From a virus, in IMG/VR virus record IMGVR_UViG_3300002835_000050, positions 50,551 through 114,550 of that record: a stretch of 64,000 bases of DNA; one strand, given 5' to 3'. The position numbers and the translations under genes were made by a program. The notes below the pieces were generated by a model that was not told the DNA's origin, did not search any database, and saw only the letters and a program-made list of their open reading frames with translations. Positions 19,141 to 42,273 of the stretch are shown one piece after another. The stretch's first letter is position 1. Each line of letters begins with the position of its first letter.

Positions 19141-19863
19141 TTATACATAAATTTTGTCCCAGTGAAACTCTAGTTCACCTTTTTCATTCAATTCAGAAAC
19201 TACAATTTCTTCATTAGTTAAATGCTTTGGTCTTGCACCACAAGTCACTTCTTCACTAGTCTTAAATGATAGAATAGTTTTGTTACCTTTTCTATACATA
19301 TAACCTATTGCATCTGCATTAGCACAGATTAAAGATTTAATTTTACCTGTCAAATCAATGTTTGCAGCTAATACCATCTCTCCCTTATCATCTATTTGCT
19401 TGTCTTTAATGTGACCTGCTAAAATAATATGGGGTGCTAAGGTATCAATAAAATCTAAAACTTGAAAGAAAGCTTGTCTTAAATATAAATATCCTGCACC
19501 ATTAGGTAATGATAAGACATTGTCTCCATCATAATTTTTACCCATGCTGGTTTGTTTATATAACTTTACGGCAAGAGGACCAACCATATCTTCTAAGGCT
19601 GTTACAGTATCAATAGTAACATACTTATATGGTTTACCTGCTTCTTTGATAGCTTTACCAGCTTCAAGTAATTCTTGTAATGAGCTTACTTGAATTTTTA
19701 AAGCATCTACATAATTAGAACCTTCTTCTAAATCAATAATAAGATTATTATCTAAACCTGCAAATGCGGTAGTTTTACCAGTTTTTGGCTTAGAATAAAT
19801 AATTAATCTTTTAGGATTAGTTGATTCTGATTTTACTTTTGTTGTTGGAAGTACTATACTCAT
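19141..19863 (-). CDS. AAA_24/Sak4-like ATPase
   Basis: YSKPKTGKTT, DLEEG, IDTVT, GAGY, DAIGY. Confidence 0.8.
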   Translation of the reverse strand: MSIVLPTTKVKSESTNPKRLIIYSKPKTGKTTAFAGLDNNLIIDLEEGSNYVDALKIQVSSLQELLEAGKAIKEAGKPYKYVTIDTVTALEDMVGPLAVKLYKQTSMGKNYDGDNVLSLPNGAGYLYLRQAFFQVLDFIDTLAPHIILAGHIKDKQIDDKGEMVLAANIDLTGKIKSLICANADAIGYMYRKGNKTILSFKTSEEVTCGARPKHLTNEEIVVSELNEKGELEFHWDKIYV

Positions 19864-26981: not shown

Positions 26982-27184
26982 AATTCTTTAGTTTTTTCTT
27001 GTTTATATTCTTTATAATTAATCCAGAAACCAATTGCTACTATGATATTCATACCAAAGGAAGCAATTATTTCCATAACATCTTCATACACAGTGGTCAT
27101 TAAATGAATATGACCAATAGTCCAGAATGGTATAGCCAAGTTTTGACTAATCCATACTATAGTAAATTTAAGAAAATGTTTCAT
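26978..27184 (-). CDS. Small membrane protein
   Basis: Two hydrophobic helices. Confidence 0.65.
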   Translation of the reverse strand: MKHFLKFTIVWISQNLAIPFWTIGHIHLMTTVYEDVMEIIASFGMNIIVAIGFWINYKEYKQEKTKEL

Positions 27185-27359
27185 TATAGTATTGTTCCGC
27201 TTTTAATCTTTGTAATGGATTATCTTCAGCAATCCAAGCATCAATAATCTGTTGCTTTTCCATTTCTTTGGCTTGTTGAATTATTTCTATTTGATTTAGA
27301 GTTGGATATTTTAACTCAAATAATTGTTCTGCTAACCATTCTACTGCTGTTTGTTTCAT
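27168..27359 (-). CDS. MKQTAVEWL-family small phage protein
   Basis: MKQTAVEWL...AKEMEKQQIIDA...EQYYNETF. Confidence 0.75.
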   Translation of the reverse strand: MKQTAVEWLAEQLFELKYPTLNQIEIIQQAKEMEKQQIIDAWIAEDNPLQRLKAEQYYNETFS

Positions 27360-27589
27360 TGTTCTTGTTGTTTAGTTATACTTTTCTGTTGTTCAATTGT
27401 TATACTTTTATGTTTCATTGTTCTTGTTGTTGATTATATTTTTTCATAAATTCAGTATCTTCACTAGGTAATGACATTCCTAATTCTACGTATTGGTCAA
27501 CAATATAGGATTCTTCATTACACCAAGTACATCCATGGTGACTCATTCTACTTCCACAATTTTCACATTCTTTCATTGTTCTTTTTGTT
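27352..27589 (-). repeat. Gene-junction direct repeats AACAAMAAGAACAATGAAA (3 copies)
   Basis: Identical 21-mers at 27352-27372 and 27411-27431; copy with 1 mismatch in 19 nt at 27571-27589; each contains an ATGA stop/start overlap. Confidence 0.85.
27415..27576 (-). CDS. Small zinc-finger protein (53 aa)
   Basis: MKECENCG...GCTWCN...QQQEQ; bounded by junction repeats. Confidence 0.65.
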   Translation of the reverse strand: MKECENCGSRMSHHGCTWCNEESYIVDQYVELGMSLPSEDTEFMKKYNQQQEQ

Positions 27590-27794
27590 TAAAGTAAGTA
27601 CTCCATTTCTTTTCATGAGATTCTTTGACAACTACAGCATCCAGTATATCCATATTCCCATCTTTTTCAGTAAGCTTTAATAATGTTGAGTGTATTAAGT
27701 CTACTGTAACATAATCTACAGCCAAACCAGCCATGTTTAATGCAACTAACATCAAATGCTGTTTTTCTTCATAATCAGATATTTCAACTTTCAT
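27573..27794 (-). CDS. Hypothetical protein
   Basis: ORF ending FKQKEQ. Confidence 0.6.
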   Translation of the reverse strand: MKVEISDYEEKQHLMLVALNMAGLAVDYVTVDLIHSTLLKLTEKDGNMDILDAVVVKESHEKKWSTYFKQKEQ

Positions 27795-27795
27795 A

Positions 27796-28002
27796 CTACT
27801 CCTTTTTTAATTCTTCTTCAAGTAAAAATTTATAATGTAAAGGCAAATACATGCTAAATGTATCAAACATATCCATAACTTCTTTTTTACTATACATTCT
27901 TTCAGCTTGATATTTAACACCTTCTATAAAAGCATCAACTTGTTCAAGATCATATATTGAATCACCATATCTCCTTTTAGCTTCTTTAATATGTTCTTCC
28001 AT
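27796..28002 (-). CDS. Hypothetical protein (QAERMYS family)
   Basis: Likely start MEEHIKE. Confidence 0.6.
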   Translation of the reverse strand: MEEHIKEAKRRYGDSIYDLEQVDAFIEGVKYQAERMYSKKEVMDMFDTFSMYLPLHYKFLLEEELKKE

Positions 28003-29497: not shown

Positions 29498-29704
29498 TTA
29501 TTTATTAAAATGGATTAAGAAGCTTATTTTCCTTTTAATTGTAGGATACTCACTTAATAACCATAAAACTAAGTCATCTTGTTCTGAATCATCAATATGG
29601 AACTCTCCATAAGTATTTAACTTGTGTCCTTGTAACACTTCATTTTGTTGTAAATGCTCAGGAATCTCTGATAATTTAATTACTGCTTTTGTTATATATT
29701 TCAT
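29498..29704 (-). CDS. Hypothetical protein
   Basis: ORF in array. Confidence 0.55.
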   Translation of the reverse strand: MKYITKAVIKLSEIPEHLQQNEVLQGHKLNTYGEFHIDDSEQDDLVLWLLSEYPTIKRKISFLIHFNK

Positions 29705-29705
29705 A

Positions 29706-29840
29706 CTACTTCTTTTTTTTAACTAAAGGATTAGCTTTTTCTAAACAATCATTACATACCCAAACTCCAATCTCTTGCATTTCAGATTTAACTTTATCTA
29801 AATGACAATAGTAACAATTCTTTTTTACTTCTTTTTCCAT
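29706..29840 (-). CDS. Small zinc-finger protein (44 aa)
   Basis: MEKEVKKNCYYC...VCNDCLEK... Confidence 0.6.
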   Translation of the reverse strand: MEKEVKKNCYYCHLDKVKSEMQEIGVWVCNDCLEKANPLVKKKK

Positions 29841-29841
29841 C

Positions 29842-30258
29842 TTAGTTTGTTTTTGTTTCAACAAGTTCAATTAGTTTGTCAAGACATTCAAGTTCTGCTT
29901 CTTCATAAGTATCAAAGTCAACTATATGTTCCCAATAATTTACGGACTCAGGGTGTTTTAAAAAACCTATTTTATTATTACCGTATGAATATCTGTGAAC
30001 TACTTTACCTTTAAATCTATCATATCTAGATTGTATGAAAGAAGGGATCTCATACTCCTCTCTAAACCATCTAAATGCTTGTTGGAATGTTGGTCTTGAT
30101 GTCCAATTTAAAAATGAAGTATTATAGTCCCAACCCTCTATTGTTAAAACATCAGAAAGCATAGGCTTATTTTCGCCATAATAAGTTAAGCATCTTTCTT
30201 TAAATCCAAGTGCTTTGAGCTTTGAAGCCTGCTCATAAGGTATAAATTCTTTTTCCAT
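29842..30258 (-). CDS. MEKEFIPYE-family phage protein
   Basis: P.FQQAFRWFRE...TYEEAELECL.KLIE. Confidence 0.7.
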   Translation of the reverse strand: MEKEFIPYEQASKLKALGFKERCLTYYGENKPMLSDVLTIEGWDYNTSFLNWTSRPTFQQAFRWFREEYEIPSFIQSRYDRFKGKVVHRYSYGNNKIGFLKHPESVNYWEHIVDFDTYEEAELECLDKLIELVETKTN

Positions 30259-30646
30259 TTTATTTTGATTTATTTATTCTTTTACCTACATTATATCCTG
30301 CCCAAAACCAAAGTATAAAGCCTATATGTGATAATATTAATACCATCTTATTCTGATTTAAGATTTATATACTCTGTACAGCGCATAGATTCCAAAAAGA
30401 GTAAGACATATTATTGCTACTAATTTGGTCATTTGAATTATATCTTCCATTTTATTCTGATTTATAGATTAATTTTTCTAATATAAACAACTCTACCTCT
30501 ACCTACATTTAACTTTTGTAAAACATCCTCTTCACTGTGTGCCCATAATGTAGTTGTTGTGTACTCTACTTCTATAGGCATTGTGTATGATAACCCTCCA
30601 AGTGATGTCCAATATTTTATTTCATACTTCATCTTATTCTGATTTA
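30256..30646 (-). repeat. Four 17-nt direct repeats TAAATCARAATAARATG separating three mini-genes
   Basis: Copies at 30256-30272, 30344-30360, 30448-30464, 30630-30646; mini-ORFs 30260-30346 (28 aa), 30358-30450 (30 aa), 30462-30632 (56 aa). Confidence 0.9.
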
Positions 30647-30849
30647 GTTTTGTTGTATAAATGTTCTAGATACTCTTTCTTTTCTGGATTATCTACATTA
30701 CTCCAATCAACTAATTGTTCTTCTGTAGTTGCTTTAGCCGTTTGAATATATCCAGGTAAACTGTTATTCTCTTCTACTGCAGTAGCTACAATCATAGCAA
30801 TTATAATAACACCAAAGTACCATTTGTATAATTCAATCTCCTTCTTCAT
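30634..30849 (-). CDS. Small membrane-anchored protein
   Basis: N-terminal TM helix; ends KSE within a junction repeat. Confidence 0.6.
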   Translation of the reverse strand: MKKEIELYKWYFGVIIIAMIVATAVEENNSLPGYIQTAKATTEEQLVDWSNVDNPEKKEYLEHLYNKTKSE

Positions 30850-30851
30850 TA

Positions 30852-31133
30852 TTAGTTCCTGTAAAGTTTGGCAATTCTTTTTTGTTCTTGCTCTCTCTTC
30901 TCAAAATCCTCTCTAAGACAATTTTTGAAGTTTCTTTCAGTGAGCTCAATCTTTTTGATCTCTTCTGGATCCTCAATATCAAGTAAGATATTTTTTCTTT
31001 TTTCTTTTTCATACAATTCCCAGTTATAAATTTCCATTTGTTTCATTTCAGACATTTCTCCAATAGTTAAACCTTCTGGTATGCCATCATTAGCTTCCAT
31101 GACCTGCATGTAGACTTCTTTCATTCTTCCCAT
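30852..31133 (-). CDS. Hypothetical protein
   Basis: MGRMKE start. Confidence 0.6.
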   Translation of the reverse strand: MGRMKEVYMQVMEANDGIPEGLTIGEMSEMKQMEIYNWELYEKEKRKNILLDIEDPEEIKKIELTERNFKNCLREDFEKREQEQKRIAKLYRN

Positions 31134-31561
31134 TCTAAACCTTTTTTAATTAATTCTCTAATTGCAGTATGCATATACATATCATTTTTATCAGCATACA
31201 TCTTTACTTGGCCATATAACATTTGATCCAAACTTAACATGACTTTGCTTCTTTGCTTAAGCTTAGATTTTATATTAGGTTCAGGAAAAGTAAATGGAAA
31301 TAACTTTTGTACTTCTGTAGTATTCTTAATGAATGTACCATCTTGCAATAACAACAAGAAATAAGGAATCTTTTTAGATATGTTTATTGTACTTCTATCA
31401 ATTTTAAATATAAAACCTAACTCATCTTCAGTTAAATTAAACTTATAAAACATTAAGGCTAGTAAATAGTTTCTATTATCTAAGTAGTTTCTTTTTCTTG
31501 TTTTCTTGATTATAAACACATTGGTTAAATAATCCCGGACATCTGTTTCTGTATAACTCAT
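31121..31561 (-). CDS. DNA-binding protein (DnaA-C-like HTH plus RHH-like tail)
   Basis: TRKRNYLDNR...ELGFIFKIDRSTI; C-terminal AIRELIKKGL. Confidence 0.5.
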   Translation of the reverse strand: MSYTETDVRDYLTNVFIIKKTRKRNYLDNRNYLLALMFYKFNLTEDELGFIFKIDRSTINISKKIPYFLLLLQDGTFIKNTTEVQKLFPFTFPEPNIKSKLKQRSKVMLSLDQMLYGQVKMYADKNDMYMHTAIRELIKKGLEWEE

Positions 31562-35023: not shown

Positions 35024-35053
35024 AAAAAATGAGAGAGATTTACACCCCTCTCA
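35024..35053 (-). terminator. Intrinsic terminator
   Basis: TGAGAGGGG-TGTAAA-TCTCTCTCA followed by T6. Confidence 0.7.
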
Positions 35054-35067
35054 CTATGTGTTTAGTC

Positions 35068-41122: not shown

Positions 41123-41134
41123 TAATTATTTAGT

Positions 41135-41629
41135 ATGATAGTAACACCAGAACTTAATGTTATATCTATAGAAGAAGAGCTAGCCTTGTTAGAGTCTCTG
41201 GCACAAGCTGAAAAAGATAGTAAGTTATCTAATGATAGAACTCTAGTAAGATATGGTAATTCTATTTATAGTAATGAGAAGTTAGATCCTATTCCTGAGT
41301 ATCTACTAGATCTATGTTATAGGTTGATAGATAAAAAAATACTAGATGCTTTACCAGAAGATATAACAGTTAACACTTATTATCCAGGAAACAAGATGGT
41401 TCCGCATATAGATAATGTAGATGCTGGACCTGTAATAACTGTGCTTAGTTTGTTATCAGATGCAAAACTTATTTTGACATATGGAACAAAAAGAGAAGTT
41501 ATAACTTTACCAGCAAGATCTATTATACAGCTTAAAGGTGTATACAGAACACATTGGAAACACAGCATAGAAAAACTAGAACACAAAAGAATATCAATAG
41601 TATTTAGACAATTAGGAAAAAAAATTTAA
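41135..41629 (+). CDS. AlkB-like 2OG-Fe(II) dioxygenase
   Basis: VNTYYPG...PHID...LSL...WKHSI...RISIVFR. Confidence 0.85.
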   Translation: MIVTPELNVISIEEELALLESLAQAEKDSKLSNDRTLVRYGNSIYSNEKLDPIPEYLLDLCYRLIDKKILDALPEDITVNTYYPGNKMVPHIDNVDAGPVITVLSLLSDAKLILTYGTKREVITLPARSIIQLKGVYRTHWKHSIEKLEHKRISIVFRQLGKKI

Positions 41630-41640
41630 AATTATTTAGT

Positions 41641-42273
41641 ATGGCACATATAGAACATAACTTCTTTCCTCTTAAAGTATTTGTAAGAAATGAATACATG
41701 TATCAACATACTAAAGGTCAAGGAGAATTAACACCGGGGGTAATTATATCAGTAAGATGTATGCCGGGGCAAGCAGCATTATTTCAGGTATTGTTAGAAA
41801 ATGGTGTACTTAGAGATAAGTTACCAAGTCATGCGTTACTACATGAAGAACAGATGCCGCAACCAGATCTACCATTTCACTACTTACAGATATGGAATTG
41901 CTTCTCTTATAACTTTACTCTACTACACTTGTCATATTTGTACGACACTAGGGTAGAAGTCTACATGAAAGATCACAAGTTCTACCCGGGTAGTTATTAT
42001 GCTACTATCAATTGGGGGTCTAATGATCACAACACAGATCTATCTTTAGCAGAAGATCCATTAGAACATAAGAGTCATCACATCATTTTACTTGACAATG
42101 GTCAAATAGCATTACAACCTAACAACAGAATTAAGTGGTCTGAACCTAGCTTTGTAACTAAACCATTTCCTGAAAAACCAGATTACTTAGTTAACAAAGA
42201 CTACTATAATTGTGAAGGATTTGAAAAATGGAGTACAGAAGATTCAGAAAGAATGTTCTATGACAATGAATAA
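41641..42273 (+). CDS. Conserved phage hypothetical protein
   Basis: LQIWNCFSY...EHKSHH...NGQIALQPNNRI.W. Confidence 0.75.
   Translation: MAHIEHNFFPLKVFVRNEYMYQHTKGQGELTPGVIISVRCMPGQAALFQVLLENGVLRDKLPSHALLHEEQMPQPDLPFHYLQIWNCFSYNFTLLHLSYLYDTRVEVYMKDHKFYPGSYYATINWGSNDHNTDLSLAEDPLEHKSHHIILLDNGQIALQPNNRIKWSEPSFVTKPFPEKPDYLVNKDYYNCEGFEKWSTEDSERMFYDNE

Follow-up and report, generated by a model that had tools for sequence, protein, structure and literature searches.

A 17-nucleotide stop-and-start repeat between the mini-genes of an uncultured phage: probably a portable translation joint that doubles as a short-homology crossover point

What does a short repeat do when it closes one small gene and opens the next, several times over within a few hundred nucleotides (nt) of a phage genome? 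This question is raised by the IMG/VR virus record IMGVR_UViG_3300002835_000050 (114,550 bp, estimated to be 96% complete), of which we analysed a stretch of 64,000 nt, hereafter called the window. A motif search of the window located the 17-nt sequence TAAATCARAATAARATG in four exact minus-strand copies inside 391 nt, at the positions given by an initial annotation of this DNA, which had proposed an integron-like or CRISPR-like (clustered regularly interspaced short palindromic repeats) architecture for shuffling micro-genes. We find that the genes between the copies do come and go, and that the repeat is probably a portable stop/restart translation joint of the Bacteroidota type, doubling as a short-homology crossover point.

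When two mismatches were allowed, the window contained five matches to TAAATCARAATAARATG compared with 0.71 expected, and none of 100 shuffles reached five; at up to one mismatch, the four array copies were the only ones in the whole 114,550-bp record. The units between the repeats are mutually unrelated, 71–165 nt in length, and each one is an open reading frame (ORF). Tandem Repeats Finder detected no array at the locus. Three close relatives (L085, L086 and L087; other viral loci are likewise cited by L numbers) were found via a gene of 146 amino acids (aa) two genes upstream of the array, with 97–99% protein identity, while a search of metagenome contigs for further close relatives returned only two distant fragments. 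On the minus strand, the order is 93 aa, 71 aa, R1, 56 aa, R2, 30 aa, R3, 28 aa, R4, 138 aa, R5, 44 aa, 68 aa, R6, 177 aa, with the following features:

30634-30849, minus strand: 71-aa membrane-type gene; its conserved C-terminal coding end enters R1; homologues in L085, L087 and the distant L020
30630-30646, minus strand: joint R1; stop of the 71-aa gene (tail KSE, second TAA) and ATG of the 56-aa gene
30462-30632, minus strand: 56-aa cassette gene; missing in L087 and L085
30448-30464, minus strand: joint R2; stop of the 56-aa gene (first TAA) and ATG of the 30-aa gene; third-frame TAA at -21
30358-30450, minus strand: 30-aa hydrophobic cassette gene; 89% identical homologue in L087, missing in L085
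30344-30360, minus strand: joint R3; stop of the 30-aa gene (first TAA) and ATG of the 28-aa ORF; third-frame TAA at -21
30260-30346, minus strand: putative 28-aa hydrophobic ORF
30256-30272, minus strand: joint R4; stop of the 28-aa ORF (tail KSK, second TAA) and ATG of the 138-aa gene; third-frame TAA at -18
29842-30258, minus strand: 138-aa cassette gene; family found in 251 viral loci, with the joint also preceding its members in L072 and L092
29838-29854, minus strand: degenerate copy R5, of CAAAAACAAACTAAGATG type; stop of the 138-aa gene and ATG of the 44-aa zinc-ribbon-like gene
29706-29840, minus strand: 44-aa gene with a CxxC...CxxC pattern; directly after the 71-aa gene in L085, L086 and the distant L020
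29484-29500, minus strand: degenerate copy R6, TAACTTAGAATAATATG; precedes the 177-aa gene

Each copy thus serves two genes at once. The upstream proteins end in ...KSE (71 aa), ...INL (56 aa), ...YKS (30 aa) and ...NKSK (28 aa), and the spacers from stop to ATG at successive joints measure 1, 11, 11, 1 and 1 nt. The frames agree with the initial description, in which the 56-, 30- and 28-aa ORFs run from the ATG of one repeat to a stop in the next and the repeat is read as K-S-E/K-stop by two ORFs (71 and 28 aa), its first TAA being the stop of the other two (56 and 30 aa). In three of the four copies (R2–R4), TAA occurs in all three frames, so that any upstream frame is closed ahead of the ATG. 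At the place homologous to R6, the relative L087 carries an exact copy of the motif.

By its sequence conservation, the 56-aa ORF is a real gene: homologues 76–98% identical were found in other assemblies, with conservative changes, and a viral-contig search with this protein gave no matches. The maximal hydropathy over 17 residues is 2.05 for the 30-aa and 1.87 for the 28-aa product. None of the 56-, 30-, 28- and 138-aa proteins matched a named family.

The letters ahead of the ATG are those favoured by the genome as a whole. Among 146 ORFs, A occupies positions -13 to -11 in 60–71% of cases, position -3 in 67% and position -6 in 51%, and a Shine–Dalgarno (SD)-like core precedes 5 of the 146. 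The motif has A at -13, -12, -11, -8, -6, -5, -3 and -2, that is, at every enriched place of this start context. Flavobacterium johnsoniae ignores the SD, and A at -3, -6, -12 and -13 are positive determinants of initiation in this bacterium (Baez et al. 2019, PMC6847099). The surroundings of the copies are weakly folded (-2 to -5 kcal/mol in 61-nt windows around the four copies, z from +0.3 to +1.0), no inverted repeat is centred on the copies, and the joint region has no Rfam match. Together these features suggest that the motif drives initiation or restart.

Two observations point to a Bacteroidota host: 60 of the 76 cultured-phage records with a helicase homologue are named Flavobacterium, Bacteroides or Cellulophaga phages, and a 22-mer form of the motif is present in contigs of Flavobacterium and Flavobacteriales metagenome-assembled genomes (MAGs). 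One or two copies of the 22-mer joint were also seen in small contigs binned to Paenibacillus, Paceibacterota and Fonsibacter MAGs (L208, L211 and L212), which are most likely phage fragments mis-binned into these MAGs. Two partners that might pair with the joint were tried and rejected. With a Flavobacterium 16S rRNA (the two motif-holding MAGs had no 16S), the duplex energy was -12.1 kcal/mol compared with a shuffled mean of -12.2, and the 3' tail behaved in the same way; a search of the phage genome for an antisense or guide RNA yielded nothing beyond scattered 12-mers at chance level.

On the minus strand between 26 and 36 kb, we detected no promoter of the Bacteroidetes type, a consensus that may not be the phage's own, and no terminator-like site below 35028-35055 or between the array genes. 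Since neither promoter nor terminator was found across the region, the array genes most likely share one long mRNA. On this long transcription unit, the small genes, presumably promoter-less, would be translated successively by termination and restart, each joint acting as an unstructured, A-rich, SD-less initiation region with TAA stops upstream and an ATG downstream.

The second property of the joint emerges from the close relatives. In L087, whose flanks are ~92% identical, window positions 30465-30621 (the 56-aa gene) are absent, and the single remaining joint aligns to both R1 and R2 with an overlap of 27 nt. L085 and L086, with flanks 98% identical, are without window positions 29858-30629 and thus without four genes (56, 30, 28 and 138 aa), the 71-aa gene directly adjoining the 44-aa gene. 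Their joint is a hybrid with a 20-nt overlap, its left part showing the letters specific to R1 and its right part those specific to R5; R5 is the right-hand partner of this 772-nt indel. Replacement occurs as well: after the 30-aa gene, the window has the 28- and 138-aa genes and L087 has unrelated genes of 127 and 29 aa, and in an unrelated lineage (L053 compared with L182) different genes lie between two exact motif copies, with homology stopping at both. The syntenic comparison proposed in the initial annotation therefore found gene content varying between relatives, with micro-genes gained, lost and replaced at breakpoints inside the repeat copies, as had been predicted. In the distant L020, a homologue of the 71-aa gene (ending ...TKSE) is directly followed by a homologue of the 44-aa gene, with a two-mismatch copy of the joint between them. 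Because of this adjacency, the four extra genes of the window look like insertions, and the 71|44 arrangement is probably ancestral.

Exchange inside a gene was also seen in this region. The body of the 71-aa gene (30709-30826, minus strand) is swapped between the window and L085, with 43% amino-acid identity and no DNA alignment, and its first ~8 and last ~25 codons, together with the flanking genes, are 92–98% identical.

Two further families of start-codon repeats in the window behave in the same manner as the motif:

27354-27373, minus strand: second joint family, AAACAAMAAGAACAATGAAA, start-codon repeat, one of three copies
27413-27432, minus strand: AAACAAMAAGAACAATGAAA, another of the three copies
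27571-27590, minus strand: AAACAAMAAGAACAATGAAA, another of the three copies
27789-27808, minus strand: third joint family, AAAAARGARTAGTATGAAA, start-codon repeat, copy 1
29699-29718, minus strand: AAAAARGARTAGTATGAAA, copy 2, preceding the 68-aa gene

Relative to L085, a 192-nt indel breaks in the AAACAAMAAGAACAATGAAA repeat with a 25-nt overlap, and a 1890-nt indel is bounded by the two AAAAARGARTAGTATGAAA copies with a 20-nt overlap. In total, all four clean indels between the phage and its close relatives are bounded by direct repeats of 20–27 nt that span a start codon. Since these other start-codon repeats act alike, the simplest mechanism would be general short-homology recombination at a shared translation joint. 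Indels flanked by 5–30-nt direct repeats of many kinds are common in these phages, and the motif is one of many short repeats where they recombine and not a unique site. On this point, the idea that the repeat is a special recombination site did not hold.

Many unrelated genes, both of this phage and of a large pool of uncultured phages related to it, are joined by the same 17–24 nt, and recombination between copies can therefore delete, insert or replace whole genes and leave the neighbours unbroken. The exchange would take place by homologous or single-strand-annealing recombination between joint copies, within one genome or between co-infecting genomes, and the indels would accordingly be products of recombination rather than of slippage. 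It is plausibly aided by a protein of the phage itself, a candidate mediator of short-homology exchanges:

19141-19863, minus strand: Sak4-like (AAA_24) single-strand annealing protein

The joint is widely spread. The exact 17-mer was found in at least 118 stretches of uncultured viral contigs, many with two to four same-strand copies 90–400 nt apart, and its consensus reaches further upstream with AAACCTT. Of the 153 distinct contexts among the matches listed, 91 have an upstream ORF that ends at the second TAA, 26 one that ends at the first and 11 one that is closed in the third frame; the downstream ORFs have a median of 63 aa, and 103 joints represent 96 different pairs of gene families. 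This use in three frames bears out the earlier suggestion that the repeat is conserved as DNA rather than as peptide. Ends of homology blocks fall within 15 nt of the motif in 38 cases, compared with 4.5 expected at random, and homology ends at 30 of 80 motif joints compared with 270 of 1374 other gene starts (odds ratio 2.45, p = 3e-4), a figure that is indicative only, as the loci are related. In 50,697 cultured phage records, the phage had no DNA match and the extended motif occurred at chance level only, none of these phages carrying the joint; the motif string was not found in the literature searched.

Copies of the motif are also more exact than chance provides. In 719 kb of loci not chosen by the motif, we counted seven exact, one one-mismatch and five two-mismatch copies, all on the coding strand; composition-matched controls gave 0, 0 and 0.8, respectively. 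Such exactness fits either continual copying by recombination or letter-specific recognition by some factor. In a separate observation, paralogous small genes within one phage share a tail and a joint (KQQEQ three times in L059, TNEK twice in L075 and FKNK twice in L037, all loci not chosen by the motif), and the tails differ between phages; this suggests that joints are homogenised within a genome.

Several observations count against a joint that works by its start context and recombines by its mere identity. An A-rich start context does not need exact letters at -10, -9, -7, -4 and -1, yet exact copies prevail. The serine of the KSE tail is encoded by TCA in 15 of 15 family members ending in KSE, compared with 27% genome-wide. 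Nearly half of the upstream proteins (48 of 115) fall into a single family (MKQTAVEWL...AKEMEKEQI...YYNETFKSE), the motif being included in its conserved 3' end, so that some of the spread is plain inheritance. In the wider set of fetched loci, which holds few near-identical pairs, 39 of 41 clean indels lie away from the motif and the two at the motif both come from this window; only three indel or replacement events touch the motif at all. Finally, no homologue was found for the 28-aa ORF; products of 28 and 30 aa are too short for a protein database search.

The KQTAVEWL family shows further conservation at the nucleotide level. In its KSE-tailed members, the codons TAC-TAC-AAC ahead of the tail are ~85% C-ending, compared with ~20% in the genome. 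When the family was sampled by protein patterns that did not include the tail, 16 of 70 members ended in KSE, and the other tails again held the next start; the window's own member (27168-27359, minus strand) ends in ...NETFS. Alternative tails (e.g., ...GGNK, from GGAGGTAACAAATGA) were considered as a mark of SD-using hosts and rejected, as SD-like cores precede only 8% of starts in the loci with such tails, much as in the other loci. Within the peptide blocks of KQTAVEWL...AKEMEKEQI...YYNETF members (L217-L296), nucleotides are conserved as well, including codons that are rare for genomes with 31% guanine plus cytosine: TAC-TAC-AAC, together with GCC and GAG within the AKEMEK block. In at least one case (L121 compared with L127), an indel that separates two members breaks inside the AKAMEKEQ block.

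A first alternative would make more of the exactness than the stop/restart joint does. The joint may be an actively recognised "standard connector" of a large pool of Flavobacteria-type phages, its letters kept by a binding or cutting factor or by exchange that itself selects for identity. We consider this possible but doubtful. If it were true, small accessory genes would pass from phage to phage as plug-in modules and be translated wherever they arrive; the arrangement would amount to an analogue of the integron that acts at the level of translation and needs no integrase.

A less probable alternative, and in our view an unlikely one, is that the repeat is an operator for a sequence-specific factor (a translational repressor, an endoribonuclease, or a DNA-binding or nicking protein) that switches small early genes as a class, with shuffling as a by-product. 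T4 RegA and RegB are models for a phage translational repressor and an endoribonuclease acting on mRNA. This explanation would account for the letter-for-letter conservation past the A-rich need, including the excess of exact over one-mismatch copies in the unbiased loci, for the invariant serine codon, and for the presence of the same 17–24 nt in phages whose shared proteins are only ~40% identical. However, no candidate factor was found, neither the antisense search in the phage nor the comparison with Flavobacterium 16S rRNA exceeded chance or shuffled controls, and different joint repeats in the same genome behave alike. Nor are all letters fixed: among the 15 family members, the stop codon within the motif is TAA in 10, TAG in four and TGA in one, and the letter ahead of the ATG varies too.

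The repeats could also be functionless, merely the leftover end of a gene plus the next start, copied along with moved or duplicated genes, with the differences between relatives arising as slippage deletions between chance direct repeats. The dominance of one upstream family, the ...TKSE end of the 71-aa family in a distant phage and the many other repeat-flanked indels of these phages are in line with this idea, which we nevertheless rate as quite improbable, lower than the operator. Among the matches listed, the motif joins 57 other upstream and 98 downstream families in three frames; in every case it sits on the coding strand and its ATG serves as a start, and it has the favoured letter wherever the start context of the genome shows enrichment. 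The 71|44 order in L020 speaks for insertions and not for deletions alone, and the replacement in L053 compared with L182 is beyond what slippage can make.

An integron- or CRISPR-like system with dedicated site-specific machinery capturing mini-genes at the repeat is largely excluded, since all that favours it is the appearance of the locus (identical short repeats interspersed with unique units, and content that varies between relatives), and against it stand the lack of tyrosine or serine recombinase and Cas1 in a genome estimated to be 96% complete, the unstructured 17-nt repeats without inverted repeats or an attC-like hairpin, "spacers" that are coding genes of very different lengths, and other joint sequences acting alike. 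In detail, the tyrosine recombinase profile (PF00589) had no match in the whole 114.5-kb record, with all control genomes matching, and serine recombinase (PF00239), ERF and Cas1 (PF01867) had none in the whole genome. The remark in the initial annotation that the window holds no dedicated integrase thus extends to the entire genome; the architecture that it proposed is not supported.

The proposed stop/restart joint can be set beside several known systems. Its behaviour matches that of the promoter-early stem-loop (PeSL), whose cassettes lie in hyperplastic genome regions of T4-type phages (Arbiol et al. 2010, PMC2839356; Comeau et al. 2014, PMC4122927). The PeSL is a composite of ~100 bp that combines a sigma-70-like early promoter with a terminator stem-loop (PMC2839356). 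In both cases, the small ORFans of a variable region are flanked by short regulatory sequences that are conserved, close relatives differ in the flanked genes through insertion, deletion or replacement (here the window compared with L087 and with L085, and L053 compared with L182), an "empty" site is one chimeric copy, and exchange appears to be homologous, without a dedicated recombinase. The joint differs in being 17–24 nt long and unstructured, with no promoter-like or terminator-like site; it would be a translation module, partly inside the upstream coding sequence and used in three frames, and its host group is Bacteroidota, not Proteobacteria. Excised mini-circles are described for PeSLs, whereas the present locus is known from assembled contig sequence alone. 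Gene shuffling at conserved repeats is thus already known in phages, and by analogy it would operate here at the level of translation.

In the modular-evolution model, Susskind and Botstein reportedly placed conserved boundary ("linker") sequences between lambdoid modules, and boundary sequences are said to have been reported for HK620-type phages. The linker or boundary idea of modular phage evolution is cited in a passage of PMC3974807. The present joint resembles such linkers as a short conserved boundary sequence that may steer homologous recombination towards whole-gene exchange. Lambdoid linkers, however, are few and lineage-specific, whereas here one exact joint recurs in at least 118 stretches and 96 gene pairs and coincides with a start-codon context.

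Termination–reinitiation coupling occurs at overlapping or closely spaced stop and start codons. The array is similar in having stop and ATG 1 or 11 nt apart, no terminator between genes and, presumably, a shared mRNA, but coupled junctions ordinarily differ in sequence between genes and between genomes. CRISPR arrays consist of repeats of ~23–47 nt and non-coding spacers of similar size, in contrast to a 17-nt repeat with coding units of differing length and no Cas1. Integron cassettes (attC sites with IntI) likewise form a row of small genes (promoter-less in integrons and presumably so here) with a recurring site and content that varies between relatives; here, however, there is no IntI and no attC hairpin, and the site overlaps coding sequence and start codon. 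Finally, the joint shares A at -3, -6, -12 and -13, the lack of an SD and low structure with the SD-less "Kozak-like" initiation regions of Bacteroidota (PMC6847099). Those are a loose preference, whereas the phage joint is an exact 17–24-mer that includes the stop codons of the upstream gene.

The locus bears on the debate as to whether phage mosaics arise mostly from illegitimate recombination followed by selection or from homologous exchange at conserved boundaries. It offers a boundary sequence that is short, exact and plausibly functional in itself (stop and restart in hosts that ignore the SD), present in more than 100 uncultured phage contigs and located at mapped breakpoints between near-identical genomes, so that the question of boundary sequences becomes testable in genetically tractable hosts such as Flavobacterium johnsoniae. 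In annotation, the motif would flag the true starts of very small phage genes overlooked by gene callers, and the joint suggests a natural "connector" for polycistronic constructs in Bacteroidota.

Some minor observations concern the neighbouring genes. Two of them gave sub-threshold Pfam matches to transposase-associated domains: the 146-aa gene (31121-31561, minus strand) to HTH_Tnp_4 (E = 0.0012, 18.8 bits against a cut-off of 27) and the 44-aa gene (29706-29840, minus strand) to zf-Tnp_2 (E = 0.0038, 18.2 bits against a cut-off of 24). Neither gene showed a catalytic domain, and the occurrence of these matches beside the array is probably due to chance. Members of the 138-aa family (MEKEFIPYEQA...FRWFRE; L015, L072, L073 and L060) are often tandem paralogues that recombine with each other, with overlaps of 55–60 nt at the indel ends. 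On the plus strand, an exact 14-nt duplication, AATTATTTAGTATG (41124-41137 and 41630-41643), supplies the ATG of two consecutive genes; two matches arose in 3 of 100 shuffles.

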